Origin: Candidatus Doudnabacteria bacterium RIFCSPHIGHO2_12_FULL_48_16
Lineage (GTDB): Bacteria; Patescibacteriota; Doudnabacteria; UBA920; O2-02-FULL-48-8
Assembly (NCBI GenBank): GCA_001780035.1
Contig: MFEY01000007.1
Location: 6,212 to 70,211, forward strand
DNA length: 64,000 bases
Direction: 5' to 3'
In this document: positions 3,050 through 59,593 of the stretch, piece after piece
Layout of the letters: every line of letters starts with the position of its first letter
Numbering within the stretch: position 1 is the stretch's first letter
Position numbers and translations under genes: made by a program
The notes under the pieces: generated by a model
Told to the model about the DNA's origin: nothing
The model's input: only the letters and a program-made list of their open reading frames with translations
Databases searched by the model: none

Positions 3050-3070
3050 ATTTTACCACGTTTCCAAAGC

Positions 3071-3099
3071 ATTGACAAAACCACGAAAAAACCGTATAA
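3071..3099 (+). promoter_or_regulatory. Consensus sigma70-type promoter (TTGACA-N17-TATAAT), followed by GGAGG and then ATG at 3131
   Basis: I read ttgacaaaaccacgaaaaaaccgtataat, then ...gcggaggaacatac ATG. The -35, spacer, -10 and Shine-Dalgarno are all textbook, which is unusual for this genome. Confidence 0.4.
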
Positions 3100-3130
3100 T
3101 AGTATGTTCAACTCAAGCGGAGGAACATAC

Positions 3131-3411
3131 ATGCGAATCGATCACCGCGACAAGGACGGCGACGGGAAATTCCAGTCAGTTCGTCTGATCGGCTCGGCGA
3201 CGACGGCAAGGTCGTCTTCGGCGTCGGAATCGCCCTGCCCGGTGAATATCCTTTCGGGGTCCACAAGAACCCGGAAACGATCCGGGTTCTCACGGGCGTA
3301 ATGGAGATCAACGGCGCTATCTACCGGCCCGGCAGCAAACCGTTCCGGATCGAAGCCGGAGAAAGCGCCACAATCAAGGTCGAGGTTCCCTCGGCCTACC
3401 TGCGGACCTAA
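3131..3411 (+). pseudogene. ppnP: PpnP/YaiE-family (DUF1255 cupin) pyrimidine/purine nucleoside phosphorylase-like gene, interrupted by a +1/-1 frameshift near 3175-3190
   Basis: The ATG frame gives MRIDHRDKDGDGKFQSV... Another frame, ending at TAA 3409-3411, gives ...SSSDRLGDDGKVVFGVGIALPGEYPFGVHKNPETIRVLTGVMEINGAIYRPGSKPFRIEAGESATIKVEVPSAYLRT. That second stretch is collinear with E. coli PpnP (SVGVMVEGEYTF…VISGAL…YLCRY). The start and stop are in different frames, and the region is about 60% GC. Confidence 0.5.
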
Positions 3412-3544
3412 ATCAAAGGAGGTGACGCATGAAGCGCAAATCTGATTGAGGGTGTAGTTTGGCGAACACCTTCAATGAGTTAACCTAGGATGTCATTCCT
3501 TGAAGGTGCCGGTTCTCCCGACATCCTTCAAGCGAGCTGACATC

Positions 3545-3877
3545 ATGTCCAAGAAGACCATCGCCAGGTTCAGCACGGTCAGGTGGGTGCGGATGCAGGA
3601 CGAACTCGTGGACAGCGACGAGCAGGCCTACGAGATCTACCTCGCCGAGGGCCGGCTGCTGGTATCCACACCCGAAGCGGCGGCCCTCCCCCTGCTCACA
3701 TTCCTCGAGCGCGAGCAGGCCGGCCGGCGCATCCGCTACCTCTACCGCCGGCTCGGCCATAAGCGCCTAACAGCGCTTAACGGGGCTATCCTCGACTTCT
3801 ACCCGAAGGGGTCGGAGCGGGACGGGTTGCCGAGCATCGGCATCGAGGGCGGCGAGCTGAACGGACGGCAATTCTAG
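3545..3877 (+). CDS. Hypothetical protein inside the high-GC island
   Basis: ORF MSKKTIARFSTVRWVRMQDELVDSDEQAYEIYLAEGRLL… at about 65% GC, versus about 48% for the surrounding sequence. I recognise no domain. Confidence 0.3.
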   Translation: MSKKTIARFSTVRWVRMQDELVDSDEQAYEIYLAEGRLLVSTPEAAALPLLTFLEREQAGRRIRYLYRRLGHKRLTALNGAILDFYPKGSERDGLPSIGIEGGELNGRQF

Positions 3878-3883
3878 GGACAA

Positions 3884-3926
3884 CGGGGATCGTGCCTGCA
3901 AGGCGCGACCCCCGTCTTTTTTTGGA
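3884..3926 (+). terminator. Possible rho-independent terminator after the high-GC ORF
   Basis: An imperfect GC-rich stem (gggatcgtgcc…ggcgcgaccc) is followed by cgtcttttttt. Confidence 0.3.
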
Positions 3927-4184
3927 ACAAAAAACAGTAAGTCCTTTTTGACCGCTGCCGACGTATGGGGTGCGACAACAGTTCGGGCTTACTGATTTTT
4001 CTAAACGTTTAGTTAGGCTTAACCTTAATCAGTTTACGGAAGTGAAATTTTCCCGTCAAAACAATTTAAAACCTCTAACTACATTGGGGTTTCCGCCGTT
4101 GCTGTGACAAATTTGTGCGAAACTTGTGGGTAAGGTGTAAATTAAAAACCCATTCCTTTCGAAATGGGCTTTAATTCGATGTCA

Positions 4185-46602: not shown

Positions 46603-47010
46603 TTAAATCCCTTCGGCCAAACTGGAAATTTTTTCCCCGGTTTTTAATGTCACGATCGCTTTCTTCCAGTCCTGGGTCTTGCCGGTGCTGTGGCCGTGGC
46701 GGCGTTTTTTGCCGGTCACGCTGATCATATTGACCGAAACCACATGAACATCGTAAACCTGTTCGACCGCTTTTTTAACCTCAATCTTGTTTGTATTTTT
46801 GGCGACGCGGAAGACATAGCGGCCGGATTGTGAAAATAAATTGCTCTTCTCGGACAAATGGTAATTGCGCAAAACCCGGTGGGCCCGGCCGGTGTTTTCT
46901 TTTAACGCCTGGTGAGTCTTGGTCTCCACGGGCTCCTTGACCATGTCCAAAACATTCTCGTCTTTCTGAGCGGGCTTCACAGCGTCTTTTTTTCGTCCAA
47001 ATAATGCCAT
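46603..47010 (-). CDS. rplW: 50S ribosomal protein L23, with an N-terminal extension
   Basis: The C-terminal part is …YVFRVAKNTNKIEVKKAVEQVYDVHVVSVNMI…. 135 aa. Confidence 0.85.
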   Translation of the reverse strand: MALFGRKKDAVKPAQKDENVLDMVKEPVETKTHQALKENTGRAHRVLRNYHLSEKSNLFSQSGRYVFRVAKNTNKIEVKKAVEQVYDVHVVSVNMISVTGKKRRHGHSTGKTQDWKKAIVTLKTGEKISSLAEGI

Positions 47011-47011
47011 A

Positions 47012-47650
47012 TTACTTTAGGTAAGTTTTTTCAATTATCGGCAGGGCATCCGCCGTTACGATCGCATCGGCTCGCATTAAATCCAAAACATTCAAATGAG
47101 TCGCGGGTAAAATTTTAACATTGGGCAAGTTGCGGGCGGCGTTTTCCAGTTCGGCGTTATGAGTGGCAATGATCAAAATAAATTTTTTGCCCAATCCGGC
47201 TTTGGCCGCGATAGTGTTAAGCTGTTTGGCCAATTCCCCGGTTTTCGCCGTCTGGCCGATTTTATCCACGACAATCAACTTGCTCTCCTTAAACTTGTCA
47301 GTCAAAACCGTAAACAGCGCTTTGCGCCAGGCGGAGCGGTTCATTTTGAGCGACCAGTCGCGATTATTGCGCGGTCCAAACGTAATGCCGCCGTGTCGCC
47401 ACAGTGGCGAACGAACCGAACCGGCGCGCGCCCGACCAGTGCCTTTTTGCTTCCACGGCTTTTTGCCGCTGCCGGCAACCTCGCCCATCATTTTGGTGTG
47501 GGCCCAAGGGCCGCGAACGTTGTTGCGCTGCGTTCTGACAGCCGCGTGAATTAAATTGGCGTCGAGTTTTTCAATGCCAAAAATCTTCGGATTCAAAGTG
47601 AGTTCCGAAATTTTCTCGCCGCTTTGGTTGTAGACTGAGGCCTTAGTCAT
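47012..47650 (-). CDS. rplD: 50S ribosomal protein L4
   Basis: MTKASVYNQSGEKISELTL…. The start is trimmed to the Met whose ATG overlaps the upstream stop as ATGACTAA. Confidence 0.85.
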   Translation of the reverse strand: MTKASVYNQSGEKISELTLNPKIFGIEKLDANLIHAAVRTQRNNVRGPWAHTKMMGEVAGSGKKPWKQKGTGRARAGSVRSPLWRHGGITFGPRNNRDWSLKMNRSAWRKALFTVLTDKFKESKLIVVDKIGQTAKTGELAKQLNTIAAKAGLGKKFILIIATHNAELENAARNLPNVKILPATHLNVLDLMRADAIVTADALPIIEKTYLK

Positions 47651-48242
47651 AGTTCTTGATAATGTTTGGATAATCGGTAAACACTCCGTCAATTCCCAAT
47701 GCTTTCAGCTTTTGAAATTGAGTGGGATTGTTGACGGTCCAGACAAATACTTTTTTACCCAAGCGCCGGAAGCGCTGAATCAACAGTTTCTTTGCCAGGA
47801 AAGTTTTTGGATGAATGGAATAAAGTTTGAGAACTTTATCAAGCTTCGGGATAAAGGGAATCAGAAACCAGTTGGCTTTTCCGATCACTAGTCCCAGCTG
47901 GACGCTTTCGTCCAAAGCCCTAATTTTCTGCAGTATCTTGGGATACTTAGAGGAAATCAGAACACTGGATGAAAAATTTTTAATGGCGCTTAATACTTCC
48001 CGCTCAAGCCCCGCTTGTTTCAGTTCCAGATTGACCGGAACTGTGATTACGCCCAAGGCTTCAGCCAAAGTCGTAAGATTCAATTTAGAAGAGTTATTGT
48101 GGCTTAAAACTATTTGGCCCGCTTTATCACGGCGCAAATCTGTTTCAACCATATCGACGCCCAACTCCACCGCCTTTTGAAAAGAACCGATCGTGTTTTC
48201 CTTCGCAAGCCCTGCTGCTCCCCGGTGCCCGATGATCAGCAT
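47643..48242 (-). CDS. Glycerophosphodiester phosphodiesterase family protein, inserted between rplC and rplD
   Basis: MLIIGHRGAAGLAKENTIGSFQKAVELGVDMVETDLRRDKAGQIVLSHN is the GDPD signature (HRG…E.D). Confidence 0.8.
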   Translation of the reverse strand: MLIIGHRGAAGLAKENTIGSFQKAVELGVDMVETDLRRDKAGQIVLSHNNSSKLNLTTLAEALGVITVPVNLELKQAGLEREVLSAIKNFSSSVLISSKYPKILQKIRALDESVQLGLVIGKANWFLIPFIPKLDKVLKLYSIHPKTFLAKKLLIQRFRRLGKKVFVWTVNNPTQFQKLKALGIDGVFTDYPNIIKNYD

Positions 48243-48243
48243 G

Positions 48244-48834
48244 CTAGGATGCCTGAATCTTCACTATACCACCGTTGGCTCCCGGCACCGCCCCTTTCAC
48301 GGCGATCAGATTGCGCTTTACATCCACATCGATGACTTCGAGATTGGTAACGGTCCTAACCCCGGCCATATGGCCTGCCATACGCAATCCTTTGCGGACA
48401 TGCTGCGGGAACCGGCCGCCGATCGCACCGACGGCGCGGGGGTGGTCATGGCCGTGGGACGCCGGGGCGCCTTTGAAACCGTGGCGTTTAATCGGACCGG
48501 CAAAGCCGCGGCCTTTCATTTCGGCCGTGACTTTAACTTTGTCGCCGATGACAAAAGTATCAACTTTAATCTCCTGCCCTTTGGTAAAAATATCCTTGTC
48601 GGAAGTTCGAAATTCAGCCAAGGTTTTGAACGCCCCATGGCCGGCTTCGGCCTTGGTCGGATGCTTCTTTTTGCCAAAACCCACCTGCACCGCGGTATAT
48701 TTGTCCTTATCTGCAGTTTTGACCTGGACGACCATCACCGGACCGGCCTTCAACACGGTCACCGGCACGACTTTGCCGTCCTTGGTGAACATCTGCGACA
48801 TATTCAGTTTTTCCGCGATGATGAATTTGGCCAT
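48244..48834 (-). CDS. rplC: 50S ribosomal protein L3
   Basis: MAKFIIAEKLNMSQMFTKDGKVVPVTVLKAGP…. Confidence 0.9.
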   Translation of the reverse strand: MAKFIIAEKLNMSQMFTKDGKVVPVTVLKAGPVMVVQVKTADKDKYTAVQVGFGKKKHPTKAEAGHGAFKTLAEFRTSDKDIFTKGQEIKVDTFVIGDKVKVTAEMKGRGFAGPIKRHGFKGAPASHGHDHPRAVGAIGGRFPQHVRKGLRMAGHMAGVRTVTNLEVIDVDVKRNLIAVKGAVPGANGGIVKIQAS

Positions 48835-49039
48835 TTGATTCTCTTCAAATTGGTGCCACCCTCTCCCTCTGGGAGAGGGGCTGGGGGTGAGGGTTTACTT
48901 TCTTAAACAAAAACCATTCAGATCCCAGAGTAATTCAGAAACCTGAATGGTTCTTCTTGAGGATCGCCGTTGTCCATCTTGTCCGCCGAAGTTTTAGCGT
49001 AGGCGGAATCGGACCTGACACAATCTAAATATTTAATTT

Positions 49040-49363
49040 TTACATTTTAATTTCGATGTCCACGCCAGCCGGAAGGTTCATATTGGAGAGGGCATCGATG
49101 GTTTTGGGGGTTGGACTGCCGATATCAATCAATCGCTTATGAATGCGCATTTCAAACTGTTCGCGGGAGTTCTTATGGACAAAGGTCGAACGGTTAACCG
49201 TATACTTGGTCTTTTCGGTTGGAAGCGGAACCGGACCAATGACCGCCGCCCCGGAACGCTTGGCGGTTTCCACAATCTGGCGGGCTGATTGGTCAATGAG
49301 CTTATGGTCATAAGCTCTGATCTTGATCCTGATTCTTCCTGATTCGGTCTTATCTTGCGGCAT
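49040..49363 (-). CDS. rpsJ: 30S ribosomal protein S10
   Basis: …[39 protein letters not shown]…. Confidence 0.9.
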
Positions 49364-49540
49364 TCGATTGAGTTGGTAAGTTAACTGCGGGTTAATAAAT
49401 TTAGTTGGGTAACTTCAGTATTTTACACAAATTGAGGGTATTTGTCAAACCCGACGCTTACGGGTCGGGTCCCCGACAAAACGTCGGGGCAGAAGGCAGA
49501 TTAAAGGACTAGCCGGGAATTGGCTAGTCCTTTCTTGTCA

Positions 49541-50728
49541 TTATTTGCTGATTTTCAGAACCACTCCGGCGCCGACGGTGTGTCCGCCTTCGCGGATGGC
49601 AAACCGCATCTTTTCTTCGATGGCAACTGGGGTAATGAGCTTGATTTTCAAGGTCACGGTGTCGCCGGGCATGACCATTTCCTGGCCGGCAGGCAACTCA
49701 ACTTCTCCGGTCACGTCAGTGGTTCGAATGTAGAACTGAGGCTTATAACCTTTGAAAAACGGGGTATGGCGGCCACCTTCTTCCTTGGTCAGAATGTAAA
49801 CTTCGGCGTCGAATTCAGTATGTGGCGTAACCGATCCAATCTTAGCCAAAACCTGGCCACGCTCAACTTCTTCCTTCTTGGTGCCGCGAAGCAGGATCCC
49901 GGCGTTATCACCGGCCCGGCCTTCATCAAGCTGCTTGTTGAACATTTCAATTCCGGTCACAACCGTCTTGGTGGTCGGGCGGATGCCGACGATTTCGACT
50001 TCTTCGCCAACCTTGATGATACCCCGTTCGATTCTGCCGGTGACAACGGTACCGCGGCCTTCAATCGAGAAGATGTCTTCAATCGGCATAAGAAACGGCT
50101 TGTCTGTTTCGCGAACCGGATCCGGGATATAGGTGTCGAGAGCTTCCACCAGCTTCAAAATTGCCGGCTCGCCCAATTCAGAGGCATCGCCTTCCAAAGC
50201 TTTCAAGGCGCTGCCGCGAATAATCGGAGTGTCTTTGCCCGGGAAACCGTATTTAGTCAATAAATCCCGGATTTCTTCTTCCACCAAGTCCAAAAGTTCC
50301 TTATCAGGCACGGTGTCAACTTTGTTCATAAACACGACGATATAAGGCACGCCGACCTGTTTGGCGAGCAAAATGTGTTCGCGAGTCTGAGGCATCGGAC
50401 CGTCCGCAGCGGACACAACCAAGATCGCACCGTCCATCTGAGCGGCGCCGGTGATCATGTTCTTGATGTAGTCAGCGTGACCCGGACAATCCACGTGCGC
50501 ATAGTGGCGTTTGTCGGATTCGTATTCGACGTGGGTGGTATTGATGGTAATACCGCGGGCTTTTTCTTCCGGCGACTTGTCGATATCGTCATAAGCCCGG
50601 GCCTTGGCCTTGCCGGTTTTGGCCAAAACATTGGTGATCGCCGCGGTCAGCGTGGTCTTACCGTGGTCAACGTGGCCAATGGTGCCGATGTTGACGTGCG
50701 GCTTGGACCGGTCAAATTTATCTGCCAT
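49541..50728 (-). CDS. tuf: Elongation factor Tu
   Basis: [27 protein letters not shown]… with the G1-G5 motifs. The start is trimmed to the conserved Met. Confidence 0.95.
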
Positions 50729-50996
50729 TTGATTAGATTCCTTGTGGCGTTTAAGTATCAAGGTCTCCTGATGCTAGGCGAAGTTCCCCATGCCCGGGGT
50801 GCTTAGCCAAGTTCAGAAGCCAACTTAAAAAACCGCCTTAAATTAATGGTTTTTACCCGCTTAAACCCTAAGGATTTTACACAGGCTTCCAAATTATAAA
50901 GCAAACATGTCGTTTTGGCAAGCCCTGTGGATTACTTTACTAACAATTCCCAAATTGATAGTATTTAGCCGAAGGAGGAGCCTCTAAAGGCGCATT

Positions 50997-51173
50997 ATGA
51001 CCAAAACCACCCGAACCCGGGCCCTGCTGGCCATTGCGGCGCTGTGCTTTAGCACGGCAACCGGCCAACACGCGATCGCGGTCGGTATTCGTTTTTCAAT
51101 CACTTTAGCCCACTCAGCGTTCGGCACGGACGCGGCCGCCGACCTGTTCCGGTTCATCCACTAGGAGTCCTCA
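50997..51173 (+). CDS. Hypothetical small protein in the second high-GC island (signal-peptide-like N-terminus)
   Basis: MTKTTRTRALLAIAALCFSTATGQHAIAV… at about 65% GC. A weak call. Confidence 0.2.
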
Positions 51174-51358
51174 TGAGCCTGACAACCCGAGCGCGCAGCC
51201 TTGAGAGCGCGATCGATCTGATCCGAGCGACCCGGCAAGCCCAGCCAAAGCGCCGAATCGAAGTCACGGTGGATGACGAAAGCCGGATCAGCCCCTTGCT
51301 TCGGGCCGGGGCCGATTTCGTCTGCGTCGCGCCACCGGCCGGAAAGGCAACCCACTAA
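51173..51358 (+). CDS. Hypothetical small protein in the second high-GC island
   Basis: 61 aa (MSLTTRARSLESAIDLIRATRQAQPKRRIEVTVDDESRISPLLRAGADFVCVAPPAGKATH). High GC, and on the strand opposite to the operon. Confidence 0.2.
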   Translation: MSLTTRARSLESAIDLIRATRQAQPKRRIEVTVDDESRISPLLRAGADFVCVAPPAGKATH

Positions 51359-51538
51359 TGAACTGGCACTGGCGAGAGTGGGTTGCAAACAATCGAAACG
51401 GCGAACGCGTGTTGCCTAAAGCAACACCCGCGAGCCGTTTTTCATTTGGGACGGTTGCAACTTACGCGACAACATATAAATTCATAAAAATAAAAACACC
51501 TCCTCGCAAATGCAAGAAAGCGTTTCTAAAAATCTATT

Positions 51539-53671
51539 CTACTTACCAACCTGTCCCACCCGGATCTTACCGGTTTCACCGATAATCTTATCCGCGACAT
51601 TTCGCGGGACTTCTTCGTAGTGATGAAATTCCATGCTGTAGGAAGCCTGGCCCTGGGACATGGACCGGATCTGGGTGGCATAGCCGAACATTTCGGCCAG
51701 CGGCACTTCGGCGTCCACCACTTTGAGATTGCCCCGCTCCGTCATTTCATTGATCTTGCCGCGCTTGGCGTTCAAATCGCCGATGACATCCCCCAAAGAT
51801 ACTTCAGGAGTTAAAACCTCCACTTTCATAATCGGCTCCAACAGAATCGGCTGAGCTTTCCGGACCGCGGCCTGGAACGCCATGGAGCCGGCAATTTTAA
51901 ACGCGATTTCCGAGGAGTCAACTTCATGATAAGAGCCGTCGAGCAAGGTTGTTTTCACGTTCAAGACCGGGAACCCGGCGATGACGCCGCGATCCTCGGC
52001 TTCTTCGATGCCTTTTTGAATGGGCTTGATATATTCCTTGGGAATCACGCCACCCACGATTTCATTGATAAATTCGTTGCCCTTGGTCGGGTCATCTTGG
52101 GGTTCGATTTTAATCACGGCATGACCATACTGGCCGCGGCCACCGGTTTGACGAATGTATTTACCTTCCGCTTCGGCGCTGCCCTTGATCGTTTCTTTAT
52201 ACGCCACTTGCGGCCGACCAACATTGGCTTCCACTTTAAACTCGCGCTTCATGCGGTCGACGATGATCTCCAAATGCAATTCGCCCATGCCCGCAATCAA
52301 AGTCTGATTGGTTTCTTCGTCGGATTTGATGCGGAAAGTCGGATCTTCTTCAGCCAGTTTCTGTAAGGCCAACCCCATTTTTTCCTGGTCTTGTTTGGTT
52401 TTCGGTTCAATCGCGACCGAAATAACCGGTTCCGGAAATTTGATGGATTCCAATTGAACCGGAAAATCAACATCACAAAGCGTATCCCCGGTAAAGGTAT
52501 CCTTGGGCCCGACCAACGCGGCGATATCGCCGGAATAAACCTCTTTCACTTCCTCACGGGAATCAGCATGAAGTCGGACCAAGCGGCCGACGCGTTCTTT
52601 GTTGCCCGAGCGGGAGTTTAAAATATAGGAGCCGGCCTGCAGCGTGCCGGTATAAACGCGGAAGAACGCCAGTTTGCCAACAAAGGGGTCGGTGGCAATC
52701 TTAAAAGCCAGGGCCACAAATTTACCTTCGTCATTCGCCGTCAGCAACAATTCTTCTTTGGTTTTGGTGTTTATCGCTTTCACCGCGGGCTTATCGAGCG
52801 GGCTAGGCAGATAATTGACCACGGCGTCTAAAATTGAGGTCACGATCAGCCCCCGGCCGTCGCCGCCTAAAACCGGATAAAATTTACCGGTCAGCGTAGC
52901 TTTCCGGATCGCAGTTTTAAACTCCGCTTCAGTCAGTTCCTTTCCAGCTAAATATTTTTCCATTATTGCGTCATCGGACTCGACTACCCGTTCCATCAGC
53001 CGGTGACGGTATTCTTTGCATTTTTCCAGCATATCAGCCGGCACTTCACCTTCCGTAAATCCCTTATCCTTGTGTTCCTTATATGTGTAGGATTTCATGC
53101 GGACCAAATCCACGATGCCGTTGATATCTTTTTCAAATCCGATCGGCAATTGAATTGGGTAAGCATTGGGCGAAAGGCGCTTATGGATCGCATCCAATGA
53201 TTTATAAAAATCCCCGCCAGTTTGGTTGATCTTATTGATGAAGCACATGCGCGGGACCGCGTATTTGTCAGCCTGGCGCCAGACGGTTTCGGATTGAGGC
53301 TCGACACCCATTTTGCCGTCAAAGACGACGACTGCGCCGTCCAGAACGCGCAAAGAGCGCTCCACCTCGACCGTGAAGTCTACGTGGCCCGGAGTATCGA
53401 TGATATTGATGCGATGGGTATCGGAGACGTGTTCCCCATTTTGCACAGACGGTGACCAAAAAGAAGTGGTTGCGGCAGCCGTAATGGTAATGCCGCGCTC
53501 CCGTTCCTGTTCCATCCAGTCCATGGCTGTGTTGCCTTCGTGGACTTCGCCGATCTTGTGGATTTTACCGGTATAAAATAAAATCGACTCGGTCGTGGTG
53601 GTCTTACCAGCATCGATATGGGCAATAATTCCAATGTTTCTCGTGTGTTCTAAACTATATTCTCTGGGCAT
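51539..53671 (-). CDS. fusA: Elongation factor G
   Basis: [28 protein letters not shown]…. 710 aa. Confidence 0.95.
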
Positions 53672-53738
53672 AATTTTAGATTAGAGCGTTCAGCGTAGAG
53701 CGTTCAGGATCTGCGCCCTGCACGCTACCCGCTGTACG

Positions 53739-54224
53739 CTATCTTCGCTGGAATCGGGCGAAGTGGGCGAACGCTTTGTTCGCTTCCGCCATTTTATGCA
53801 CGTCTTCGCGTTTTTTGATGGCGGCGCCCGTCTTGTTATAGGCTTCCATAAATTCCGTAGCCAATTTTTCGGCCATTGGCTTGCCCTTTTTGGATCGAGC
53901 CGCGTCAATCAGCCATTTCATGCCGAGGGCGGTTTTGCGGGGTTCCTGGACTTCCATCGGAACCTGGTAGTTGGCCCCGCCGATGCGGCGACCTTTAACT
54001 TCCACAATCGGGGTGACGTTGCGGATCGCCTGTTCGAACACAGCCTTCGGATCGGTCTTCATGTCCGCTTCGATTTTGTTGAACGCGTCATAAACAATCT
54101 TCATGGCCACGGTCTTCTTGCCCCGTTCCATAATGTAATTGATAAATTTGCCGATTTTCACGCTGTTGTATTTGTGATCAGCTTCGGCCAGATGTCGTTT
54201 ATAACTTCGAGCTTTACGAGGCAT
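53739..54224 (-). CDS. rpsG: 30S ribosomal protein S7
   Basis: MPRKARSYKRHLAEADHKYNSVKIGKFINYIM…. Confidence 0.9.
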   Translation of the reverse strand: MPRKARSYKRHLAEADHKYNSVKIGKFINYIMERGKKTVAMKIVYDAFNKIEADMKTDPKAVFEQAIRNVTPIVEVKGRRIGGANYQVPMEVQEPRKTALGMKWLIDAARSKKGKPMAEKLATEFMEAYNKTGAAIKKREDVHKMAEANKAFAHFARFQRR

Positions 54225-54254
54225 AATTTATAATTTAAAATCTATAATTTCTAA

Positions 54255-54671
54255 TTACTCAGTTCTCTTGGCGCCGTATTTGCTGCGGCCCTGTTTGCGG
54301 CCTTCCACTCCGGAGGCGTCTAATTTTCCGCGGACAATATGATAGCGCACGCCCGGCAAATCTTTGACGCGGCCGCCACGAATCATAACGACGGAATGCT
54401 CCTGCAAATTATGGCCGATACCCGGAATATAAGCGGTGACTTCCATGCCGTTAGACAGACGGACGCGGGCAATTTTCCGCAAAGCAGAGTTTGGCTTTTT
54501 TGGGGTGGTGGTGGTGACTTTGATACAGACCCCGCGCTTAAACGGCGAGCCTTTCGGCAATTGGTAAGGGCGCCCTTGAAGCAGGTTAAACCCGCGGTCC
54601 AGTGCCGGGGTTTTGGATTTGTAAACTTGCTTGATTCGTCCGTGACGGACTAATTGGTTGATAGTAGGCAT
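54255..54671 (-). CDS. rpsL: 30S ribosomal protein S12
   Basis: [27 protein letters not shown]…. The 32-codon upstream ORF extension is read-through of an SR-C-like repeat (cctctccccttgtgggagaggg…). Confidence 0.9.
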
Positions 54672-54988
54672 AATGGTTATCTTCAGATTGCCCCTCTCCC
54701 CTTGTGGGAGAGGGTGGTGCGAAGCACCGGGTGAGGGGTCTAAACCCTCTCTGTCGCTTCGCGACATCTCCCCCAGAGGGGGAGAATTATTTTGAACAAT
54801 TTACTGGCAATTAAAAACGGTCTTTTAGGACCGCGTGCAACTCAATCCGCCAGCAGGCGGATTGTCCGGTCGCTTGACCGGACCTTACGGCTTTAAAAGC
54901 TCAAAACAATTAATTCTTTTAATTATCCGCCTTCGCTAAAGCTTCGGCGGACTTCGCTGCCAAATCTTAACAGATTTTTCTTGTTATG

Positions 54989-55639
54989 TCAAATCCCAAT
55001 ATTGGATCCGAGCAGGAAATTAAGCAGGAAATTCAGCGGGGGTATTAATACTGTATTTAACAAACCGCTATAAAGAAATAAAATTATCAAAATAAAGCCG
55101 AATTTTTCCATAGACAAAATGGCATACATCCAATTCCGGTCCAGGAAGCCAAACAAACTTGCCAAAATTTTCGAGCCATCCAGTGGTGGAATCGGGATGA
55201 GGTTAAACAAACCAAGTACTAAATTCAGCAAAATCGTTTGAAATAATAATTCTTGGCCCATGTTTGATAAATTCGGACTCAACCGGTAAACAATCGCGGC
55301 CAGCACGGCCAAAACAAAATTTGTGGCTGGCCCGGCCAGCGAAACCAGAATCATATCCCATTTGAGGTTGCGCAAATTGCGGTAATCAACCGGCACCGGC
55401 TTGGCGGCGCCGAACAGAATCGGGGAATTGATCAGCAGTAAAAACACTGGTAAAAGAATCGAGCCGAACAAATCGATATGAGGTATAGGGTTTAGCGTCA
55501 GCCGGCCAGCATAGCGGGCCGTCGGATCCCCCAGTTTATCAGCCACCAGTCCGTGCGCAACCTCGTGAAAAATTACGGAAAACAGCAGAATGGCGACGTA
55601 GATTACAATTGATAGTGGATCCATAGGATTTATATGCAA
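54989..55639 (-). CDS. Site-2 protease family (M50) membrane metalloprotease, SpoIVFB-like
   Basis: The HEVAHGLVADKLGD HExxH motif sits in a transmembrane helix, there is a second LNLVLGLFNLIPIPPLDGS motif, and the protein has six transmembrane segments. Confidence 0.75.
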   Translation of the reverse strand: MHINPMDPLSIVIYVAILLFSVIFHEVAHGLVADKLGDPTARYAGRLTLNPIPHIDLFGSILLPVFLLLINSPILFGAAKPVPVDYRNLRNLKWDMILVSLAGPATNFVLAVLAAIVYRLSPNLSNMGQELLFQTILLNLVLGLFNLIPIPPLDGSKILASLFGFLDRNWMYAILSMEKFGFILIILFLYSGLLNTVLIPPLNFLLNFLLGSNIGI

Positions 55640-55785
55640 CCCTGAACTTGTTTCAGGGTCTCTTCGATGAGATCCTGACTTTCGTCAGGATTGCGAATGC
55701 GTAAGTCTTGCTTAATTTACTCAACCATGTTAATATATCCGAAGTTGCTCTAATTTTAACAAGCTTTAACCAGCCCTACAAATAT

Positions 55786-55977
55786 ATGGCAAGAGTCTGC
55801 CAAGTTTGCGGCAAAGGTTATCTCGCTACTTTTACCCGGTCGCATTCCATGCGCAAAACCAAAGTTCGGCTTTATCCCAATCTCCAGTGGATGAAGCTCG
55901 AACACGGCAAGCGCGTCAAGTCGTGCGTTAAATGCATCAAAACCCGGACTAAGCGGATGGCCGCAGTTGCTGCCTAA
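55786..55977 (+). CDS. rpmB: 50S ribosomal protein L28
   Basis: MARVCQVCGKGYLATFTRSHSMRKTKVRLYPNLQ… is collinear with L28 (MSRVCQVTGK…NRSHA…). Confidence 0.8.
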   Translation: MARVCQVCGKGYLATFTRSHSMRKTKVRLYPNLQWMKLEHGKRVKSCVKCIKTRTKRMAAVAA

Positions 55978-59385: not shown

Positions 59386-59593
59386 TAAGCAGAAAGAGTC
59401 TTTCGCCTTCTTTCATCCAGACTATACTGTCGCCTCCGGAATCAAACCGGATCGTGCTCTTTCAAGCTCGCGGGGTATACCGCCGGTGGGGAATTCTCTG
59501 CCCGCCGAAGCCTCGGCGAAGGAGGGTCACCCCGCCCTGAAGGTTAATTGCTTTGATTATAGCTTATACAAAATTGGTAGGCAAACTATTCGC

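Follow-up and report, generated by a model that had tools for sequence, protein, structure and literature searches.

The str operon is normally among the most stable gene orders in bacteria. The phage morons described by Hendrix and colleagues are reportedly promoter-gene-terminator units of deviant composition that sit between conserved genes. In bacterial chromosomes many hotspots of accessory genes are without mobile elements, and in these the flanking core genes recombine, most of all where the bacteria are naturally transformable (Oliveira, Touchon, Cury and Rocha, 2017; PMC5635113). Saccharibacteria, which belong to the Candidate Phyla Radiation (CPR), have been shown to undergo natural transformation and to recombine the DNA homologously (PMC10187176). 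Here we describe the interval between fusA and tuf, the genes of elongation factors EF-G and EF-Tu, in a stretch of 64,000 nucleotides (nt) from Candidatus Doudnabacteria bacterium RIFCSPHIGHO2_12_FULL_48_16, a member of the CPR from the Rifle aquifer (GenBank assembly GCA_001780035.1, contig MFEY01000007.1, positions 6,212 to 70,211), hereafter the window. The interval holds a GC-rich cassette of two small open reading frames (ORFs), ORF A and ORF B, on the strand opposite to fusA and tuf. The cassette is probably a species-specific plus-strand unit, predicted to be transcribed, translated and exchanged by recombination, in a gene-turnover slot shared by the whole lineage.

Results

The spacer between fusA and tuf is a composite

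In the window fusA (51539-53671, minus strand) and tuf (49541-50728, minus strand) are held apart by a spacer of 810 nt (50729-51538). A first-pass annotation, made from the sequence alone, had recognized this separation and put its length at about 780 nt. It had given the GC content of the core as about 65%; the core (50990-51450) is indeed GC-rich, at 61.2% against a window average of 47.4%, and 64.5% is the value of ORF B alone. Only 0.34% of all 461-nt windows across the 64 kb have a GC content at or above that of the core, the others at this level being a second GC-rich region at 3060-3930 (island 1; the core is referred to as island 2 where the two are compared) and part of the transketolase gene. 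The flanks of the core are AT-rich, with 42% GC in 50729-50984 and 33% in 51451-51538. Both of the small opposite-strand ORFs listed in the first-pass annotation are present, as is its nested hairpin with a T tract (Table 1); the 58 amino acids (aa) quoted for the first ORF count a frame from stop to stop, which from its ATG is 55 aa long.

The spacer is built of three pieces. Past the strong fusA terminator comes the convergent, GC-rich cassette of two ORFs, and past this a conserved stretch with the tuf promoter and a divergent promoter-like site. Since the cassette is set between the fusA terminator and the tuf promoter, it forms a convergent, self-contained unit and interrupts no operon. 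No second copy of it was found in the window or in the 168 related loci that were fetched (1.18 Mb).

The same slot holds different genes in each relative

The interest of the spacer had originally been seen in the premise that fusA and tuf are normally adjacent. In an EF-Tu scan of reference genomes, loci outside the CPR by title had fusA-tuf spacers of 0-150 nt, with one of 366 nt, and most loci marked as CPR by title or content had spacers of 396-1548 nt. An EF-G search returned many Doudnabacteria at 74-93% identity, and a metagenome scan with the EF-G C-terminus gave, among the matches listed, distant relatives at 74% identity or less. Our sister set comprises nine Doudnabacteria whose EF-G is 79-93% identical; DNA was compared for eight of them (loci L172-L179). 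ORFs on the opposite strand lie between fusA and tuf in all nine sisters, so that the slot is occupied in ten genomes out of ten when the window is included. Eight sisters hold between one and seven small slot ORFs without Pfam hits, and the ninth holds an orphan and a Guanylate_kin gene. The spacers measure 688-2991 nt in the eight sisters with DNA. In one of these, L179, the gene caller had taken the wrong strand, and our own ORF calls with detection of Shine-Dalgarno (SD) sequences give two opposite-strand ORFs. With gene-filled spacers of 0.4-3 kb in nine of nine sisters and most of the CPR sampled, the premise of normal adjacency does not hold for this lineage. The gap itself appears, from these comparisons, to be ancestral and shared by the lineage, and it is the spacer content that would be species-specific.

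The content is for the most part unrelated from genome to genome. Among the slot proteins of the eight relatives there are only two clearly related pairs, one found by BLAST (E=3e-12) and one, from L176 and L178, by the C-terminal motif LSPENDRWNKMALG seen by eye. No lookalike of ORF A or ORF B occurs in the sister slots. Different small genes are therefore found at the same spot in each species, which makes this junction a gene-turnover hotspot.

Three of the slot proteins carry an HxxxCxxC motif after a leucine-rich helix (HAHRCSAC, HIRECRQC and HLETCPRC), which on reading we take to resemble the zinc-binding anti-sigma motif of zf-HC2. In several more distant CPR genomes the spacer holds instead a small ORF that runs in the direction of fusA and tuf, with the pattern KKIxxLIKKTGDRVIIL...YVxMxLxxYExL. 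The five such ORFs are mutually related (BLAST E down to 3e-16), and three of them have an N-terminus like that of Phd/YefM antitoxins (Pfam E 1e-6 to 0.04, below the cut-off); neither the window nor the Doudnabacteria loci have such an ORF. The closest EF-Tu in the genome collection (L012, 88% identical) is encoded on a contig that starts 380 nt upstream of tuf, inside the spacer; positions 1-388 of that locus have a TTGACA...TAAAAT promoter of their own and no similarity to the window.

Slot genes have Shine-Dalgarno sequences and the surrounding core genes do not

Slot ORFs are set apart from their neighbors by their leaders. GGAGG precedes 17 of 22 slot ORFs and GGAG or GAGG 21 of 22, at 3-9 nt before the start codon; almost all of these small accessory ORFs (17/22) are preceded by AAGGAGG. 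Upstream of 48 neighboring core genes in the eight relatives GGAGG is never found, and any 5-nt match to the SD consensus occurs in only five cases. The core genes rpsL, rpsG, fusA, tuf, rpsJ, rplC, rplD, rplW, rpmB and the M50 peptidase gene have AT-rich leaders without an SD, both in the window (46603-55977) and in the relatives, and across the whole window GGAGG precedes only a handful of ORFs. Slot ORFs are also 4-15 points richer in GC than their loci (0.50-0.60 vs 0.445-0.49 in the relatives, 0.61-0.65 vs 0.47 in the window). They are a distinct class of genes, and the contrast in leaders suggests that Doudnabacteria use two modes of translation initiation.

Terminators, divergent promoters and the tuf leader

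Within about 10 nt of its end fusA is followed by an intrinsic terminator, which consists of a hairpin of 17 bp and then TTTTTATTTTTA; the terminator folds at -21.0 kcal/mol (z -8.7), and none of 200 shuffled sequences was as stable. A comparable hairpin with a T run lies directly past fusA in the aligned sister species. On the plus strand, the nested hairpin past ORF B is likely the terminator of the cassette. Its arms (51396-51415 and 51421-51440) are 80% complementary and are followed by a T run, and it folds at -24.1 kcal/mol (z -2.0); a consensus terminator scan did not list 51396-51440, because the stem is interrupted. As an A run and a T-rich stretch flank the hairpin, it may also stop read-through from fusA on the minus strand. 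A second hairpin, with a perfect 10-bp stem (GCAACCCACT / AGTGGGTTGC), spans the stop codon of ORF B and folds at -20.8 kcal/mol (z -4.9; 0/200 shuffles as stable). A 17-nt stretch of ORF A (51066-51082) and the 5' terminator arm (51398-51414), 315 nt away, show 88% complementarity, and by base pairing the stretch could compete with terminator formation.

At the other end of the spacer the tuf promoter matches the consensus at 11 of 12 positions and is conserved in all aligned sister Doudnabacteria. Back to back with it stands a putative cassette promoter with an extended -10 element, and at the same site the alignments show a -10-like box in the relatives (TATACT, TATAAT, TATGCT or TATTAT). 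Between L172 and the window the tuf 5' leader is 84% identical (163 aligned nt). The only spacer DNA conserved between species is this leader with the tuf promoter and the divergent -10-like box. Within the tuf 5' untranslated region, the sister Doudnabacteria have a stem-loop in common (CUGAACUUGGCUAAG...CUUCGCCUAGCAUCAG), for which RNAalifold gives 17 pairs, four of them with compensatory changes, from six sequences. A candidate leader or regulatory element, it is without a match in Rfam.

The strong SD-like sequence AAGGAGGA lies in the window at the site of the SD of the first slot gene in the sisters, where in the alignment it stands 3-9 nt before the start codon in all eight relatives.

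ORF B is probably a real protein and ORF A is less certain

The SD of ORF B (AGGAG, 51163-51167) stands 5 nt before its ATG and overlaps the stop codon of ORF A (TAG, 51162-51164). Database searching, which the first-pass annotation had proposed for the two proteins, was productive for one of them only. A word-index search of 5.8 billion proteins found ORF B itself and nothing else; an exhaustive HMMER search of 1.84 billion representative proteins found one credible homologue, P0126 (E=1.2e-5), the other matches being long repeat proteins. P0126 (62 aa) aligns with ORF B from end to end without a gap at 43% identity, and the two proteins share their terminal histidine. The gene of P0126 is carried by an 802-nt contig (ENA ERZ27297570), at a distance of 248 nt from a divergent gene, of 103 aa, that is cut off by the end of the contig. 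The AlphaFold2 model of ORF B, built from a two-row alignment, has a predicted local distance difference test score of 83 and a beta-alpha-beta-alpha-beta order of elements. Foldseek superposes this model on Rossmann-like (beta-alpha)2-beta units of RCK/TrkA-N, CheY-like receiver and TIM-barrel structures in the PDB, with query-normalized TM-scores of 0.72-0.78 and root-mean-square deviations of 1.1-1.9 Å over about 51-55 residues. ORF B covers only 9-41% of such domains and is without their ligand-binding motifs; the best Foldseek E-value against the PDB is 2e-3, with none at or below 0.001, and neither a profile search of PDB sequences nor a search of Pfam gave anything significant. The likeness is, as modelled, a generic supersecondary resemblance and no proof of membership in any of these families. 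A reading of ORF B as a fragment of NadC (quinolinate phosphoribosyltransferase, QPRTase) was rejected: Pfam and NCBIfam give no support for it, and the Foldseek match to a QPRTase is one of many generic beta-alpha matches. Neither ORF B nor ORF A has a match in Pfam, NCBIfam, PHROGs or PADLOC. Because of its gapless homologue of the same length, its confident model and its well-placed SD, we take ORF B to be probably a real small alpha/beta protein in a family of two.

By eye, the start of ORF A, MTKTTRTR followed by ALLAIAALCFSTA, fits the n- and h-regions of a signal peptide, and its AlphaFold2 model is one long helix; its highest Kyte-Doolittle average over 19 residues is only 1.45, compared with 2.1-2.95 for the clear membrane helices in the first slot ORFs of four relatives. 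ORF A is a candidate for a small peptide that is secreted or membrane-bound, possibly a weak positional analogue of the relatives' first-slot membrane proteins; alternatively, the frame may be spurious or poorly translated.

That the ORFs have no function, being decaying junk or the remnant of older cargo in a safe site, with frames kept open by chance through high GC content, is an unlikely explanation of the cassette. It draws on the misplaced SD of ORF A and its want of homologues, and on the long open frames present on both strands: minus-strand ORFs of 75 aa and 57 aa share one frame, with a single stop codon between them. Island 1 indicates that frameshifted remnants occur in this genome, and the fold of ORF B could be read as a piece of the larger alpha/beta domains that it covers in part. 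For a remnant, however, ORF B has a homologue of nearly its own length at 43% identity without a gap, a confident structure model, and an SD at the correct distance that overlaps the stop codon of ORF A. Directly after ORF B come two stable hairpins, and the spacer is unchanged in every sample.

Composition does not link the cassette to island 1

According to the first-pass annotation, the composition of the core matched that of island 1, so that the two might be foreign DNA from one source. The islands do share a layout: both run against their flanking genes and consist of a promoter (putative in the cassette), SD-led ORFs and a terminator; in island 1 the promoter is a perfect TTGACA and TATAAT separated by 17 nt. 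The comparison of composition, which had been suggested along with the claim, leaves them unlinked. In GC-normalized dinucleotide distance to the remainder of the window, island 2 scores 109 and is host-like (same-size windows give a null of 105 ± 32), whereas island 1 scores 186, above the 95th percentile of 161 and hence atypical. The distance between the islands, 206, equals that of random windows to island 1, and the GC content at third codon positions (GC3) is 0.73-0.75 in ORF A and ORF B compared with 0.89 in the 110-aa ORF of island 1. As the sequences are short (about 460 nt), these composition tests are low in power. They lend no backing to the proposed common foreign source, nor do they establish that island 2 is foreign.

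The first frame of island 1 (3133-3411, plus strand) belongs to a frameshifted gene resembling Ppnp/DUF1255 (pyrimidine/purine nucleoside phosphorylase); once joined, the frames match Pfam PF06865 at E=3.8e-5 and 24.4 bits (cut-off 25) over profile positions 8-89 of 92, and the gene is either a pseudogene or carries a sequencing frameshift. The second, an ORF of 110 aa (3545-3877, plus strand), has in its GC3 what looks like a strong coding signature of a high-GC donor, and has no match in Pfam, NCBIfam, PHROGs or PADLOC.

We regard a recent import of the cassette from a high-GC donor, the same that supplied island 1, as rather unlikely. Its attraction lies in the 61% GC of a core within a genome at 47%, in the top 0.34% of windows; in two ORFs that are orphans by word-index search and SD-led amid core genes without SDs; and in the Ppnp-like gene of the similarly arranged island 1, a plausible imported remnant. 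The dinucleotide signature of the cassette nevertheless matches the host and mismatches island 1, with GC3 at 0.74 vs 0.89, and the native transketolase, rplC and mreB-like genes (identities read from their translations) reach 60-64% GC locally. No donor was found in the 5.8 billion proteins or in phage, plasmid and viral contigs. Searches of plasmid and phage DNA and proteins gave nothing significant, the 22-25-nt matches in the phage collection having E about 0.5, and IMG/VR scans for ORF A, ORF B, P0126 and one relative's protein found no relative. Nine of ten slot and island proteins had no match in PHROGs and the tenth, a relative's slot protein, had one at chance level (E 0.078); the relatives' slot proteins scanned in PHROGs and PADLOC matched no family. 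No integrase, transposase or phage gene occurs among the called slot genes, as judged by precomputed Pfam listings and by PHROGs on a subset, and no direct or inverted flanking repeats that would hint at transposition were found.

The spacer is explained neither by an RNA gene nor by the assembly

A structured non-coding RNA (for instance a tRNA array that escaped notice, a riboswitch or some large RNA) or a cis-regulatory element of the str operon is a very improbable reading of the GC-rich core. Its intergenic position, high GC content and several hairpins would suit such a role, as would the 17-nt long-range complementarity between ORF A and the terminator arm. ARAGORN, on the other hand, finds no tRNA gene anywhere in the window, bearing out the first-pass annotation, which had recognized none; no Rfam family reaches its gathering score in the spacer, and a scan of 50650-51650 at E<=10 gives only chance-level matches to PyrR (E 2.5) and mir-5928 (E 9.3). 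The minimum free energy of the core is no better than that of shuffled sequence on either strand (z -1.7 plus, -1.2 minus). The core is conserved in no sister species, on the minus strand it falls between the fusA terminator and the tuf promoter, and ORF B is conserved as a protein. The check for structured RNA that had been proposed at first pass therefore gave no explanation for the spacer. The window's only Rfam family is an FMN (flavin mononucleotide) riboswitch at 59401-59548 on the minus strand (87.7 bits against a gathering score of 66.2).

That the spacer is a misassembly or the chimeric join of a metagenome-assembled genome is scarcely credible, its only hints being the compositional jump and the break of the L012 contig 380 nt upstream of tuf, since the full 810-nt spacer is 100% identical, together with both flanking genes, in nine of 11 fetched loci (eight assemblies from three sources: two from NCBI, three from JGI, three from ENA), is identical over 754 nt up to the contig end in the remaining two, and has no Ns and no repeats at its junctions, so that the comparison of assemblies turned up no sign of error. 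Among the matching loci is contig MFEP01000036 of GCA_001777635.1, and ORF B is identical to the NCBI hypothetical protein A3J07_03670 of Candidatus Doudnabacteria bacterium RIFCSPLOWO2_02_FULL...

Other features of the loci

The coordinates of the features are collected in Table 1. The relatives have a second variable slot, between the M50 peptidase gene and rpsL, which contains opposite-strand ORFs, most of which lack a Pfam hit; the corresponding interval of the window (about 54672-54988) is empty. In the S10 operon of the window a GDPD (glycerophosphodiester phosphodiesterase) gene (47643-48242, minus strand) lies between rplC and rplD and overlaps the start of rplD. It has the same position in L172, L174 and L179, while in L177 and L178 rplD follows directly after rplC.

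Table 1. Coordinates of features in the fusA-tuf spacer of the window and in related loci. Positions without a locus name are those of the window; L numbers denote loci of other genomes.
Feature	Coordinates	Strand	Remarks
tuf 5' leader	50729..50892	-	about 160 nt; holds conserved stem-loop 50768-50816; alignment with relatives
tuf promoter	50893..50921	-	TTGCCA, 17 nt, TATAAT
Putative cassette promoter	50936..50964	+	-35 TTTACT 50936-50941, 17-nt spacer, extended -10 TGaTAGTAT 50956-50964; read from sequence
Strong SD-like AAGGAGGA	50972..50979	+	GC rise starts just past it
ORF A, 55 aa from ATG	50997..51164	+	basic N-terminus, then moderately hydrophobic stretch
ORF B, 61 aa	51173..51358	+	probable small alpha/beta protein
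Second hairpin	51347..51386	+	inverted repeat I5
Nested hairpin and T tract, likely cassette terminator	51396..51445	+	inverted repeat I1
fusA intrinsic terminator	51491..51528	-	terminator scan
HxxxCxxC slot proteins	L173 6754-7089; L178 5915-6292; L179 6091-6378	opposite strand	two with N-terminal membrane helix
Same-strand CPR spacer ORF	L013 3591-3836; L015 3524-3898; L017 3461-3835; L021 3654-3833; L036 3446-3778	strand of fusA/tuf	BLAST among the five
M50 peptidase-rpsL slot	L173 1383-2347; L174 1477-2112; L175 1669-2346; L176 341-2243; L179 837-2441

Discussion

Taken together, these results describe a junction in which fusA ends at its own strong intrinsic terminator (51528->51491) and tuf has its own conserved promoter (50921->50893) and a structured leader. 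The variable slot between them here holds a unit of about 480 nt and 61% GC on the plus strand, consisting of a putative promoter, ORF A, ORF B and two hairpins, which would be transcribed independently from the divergent promoter and from which both ORFs would be translated. The left junction would lie between the retained SD (50979) and the ATG of ORF A (50997), the promoter-SD module having been kept and the downstream cargo replaced. Such cargo would be exchanged by recombination, with fusA and tuf serving as homology arms, for which they are well suited because they are highly conserved. The cassette may encode an accessory small-protein pair of fast turnover, with a role in the envelope, in host interaction or in a conflict system, a suggestion that we make with low confidence.

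Several observations weigh against this account. No empty site and no donor sequence were found, and the direction and mechanism of acquisition are for this reason only inferred; transcription and translation of the cassette are likewise read from its sequence. The putative cassette promoter agrees with the consensus at 8 of 12 positions, below the scan threshold of 9, and AAGGAGGA ends 17-18 nt before the ATG of ORF A, which is too far. ORF A matches only itself among the 5.8 billion proteins, and the sole homologue of ORF B comes from a contig of 802 nt. GC3 fails to separate the plus-strand frames from the antisense frames, and in one locus (L008) the gene caller took the 75-aa minus-strand ORF in place of ORF B. 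All available copies are identical and so yield neither a ratio of nonsynonymous to synonymous substitutions nor covariation. Finally, the host-like dinucleotide signature is equally compatible with an import and with a native gene that is long resident and evolving fast.

A stronger version of the proposal, which we advance only tentatively, is that the spacer is a dedicated expression slot rather than a dump site that is simply tolerated; in it a conserved bidirectional promoter, a retained strong SD and terminators on both sides would serve swapped orphan cargo, translated in an SD-dependent way of which the core genes make no use. The tuf promoter is expected to be among the strongest of the cell. 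A comparably tentative guess is that the cargo of such a slot comprises membrane peptides, the HxxxCxxC proteins and the ORF B family. If the proposal is true, these episymbionts would gain fast-evolving factors for the surface, for host interaction or for defence. An analogous slot may exist in other CPR lineages, because their fusA-tuf spacers are also long and occupied.

As far as the window is concerned, these findings chiefly clarify matters: the insert exists, and it represents the form that a variable slot takes in one species. Of greater interest are two by-products, namely that the slot is found across the lineage and that its cargo is SD-led amid core genes without SDs. A junction that is among the most conserved in bacteria is split in this lineage by a terminator and a promoter and used for rapid gene turnover, and this, like the slot genes with a canonical SD amid translation genes without one, may be of interest for genomes of the CPR/Patescibacteria in general. 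The contrast offers a simple marker of accessory genes and could help annotation, since gene callers disagreed on the strand of these ORFs. The fusA-tuf site may also serve as a neutral or expression site for genetic tools in the CPR.

Among known systems, the integron gene cassette was considered and rejected: slot ORFs in multi-gene slots lie 8-20 nt apart with no repeated sites, there is no integrase domain in the Pfam listings of the loci, and by eye the hairpins of the window do not fit the RYYYAAC/GTTRRRY of attC sites. The cassette resembles type II toxin-antitoxin pairs in having two small adjacent ORFs, an overlap of stop codon and SD, and a place in a variable region; unlike in those pairs, neither ORF matches a toxin or antitoxin family in Pfam, NCBIfam or PADLOC, and ORF A looks like a secreted or membrane peptide. 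The same three collections give no significant match of ORF A or ORF B to known anti-phage defence families. With phage morons the cassette shares a putative promoter, one or two small ORFs, a terminator, deviant GC content and a place between genes that are adjacent in most other bacteria sampled, but it lies in a bacterial chromosome and has no match in PHROGs or viral contigs.

The closest likeness in arrangement is to the hotspots without mobile elements (PMC5635113). As in those, one and the same core-flanked interval holds different accessory genes in each of ten genomes, and it is by this pattern, the same interval with different accessory families, that a hotspot is recognized. The fusA-tuf slot differs from them in lying inside the str operon, in being tiny (0.5-3 kb), in having been compared between species, and in a cargo that is always SD-led and on the opposite strand. 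The locus is of a known kind; what is new is its species-specific occupant, the cassette.

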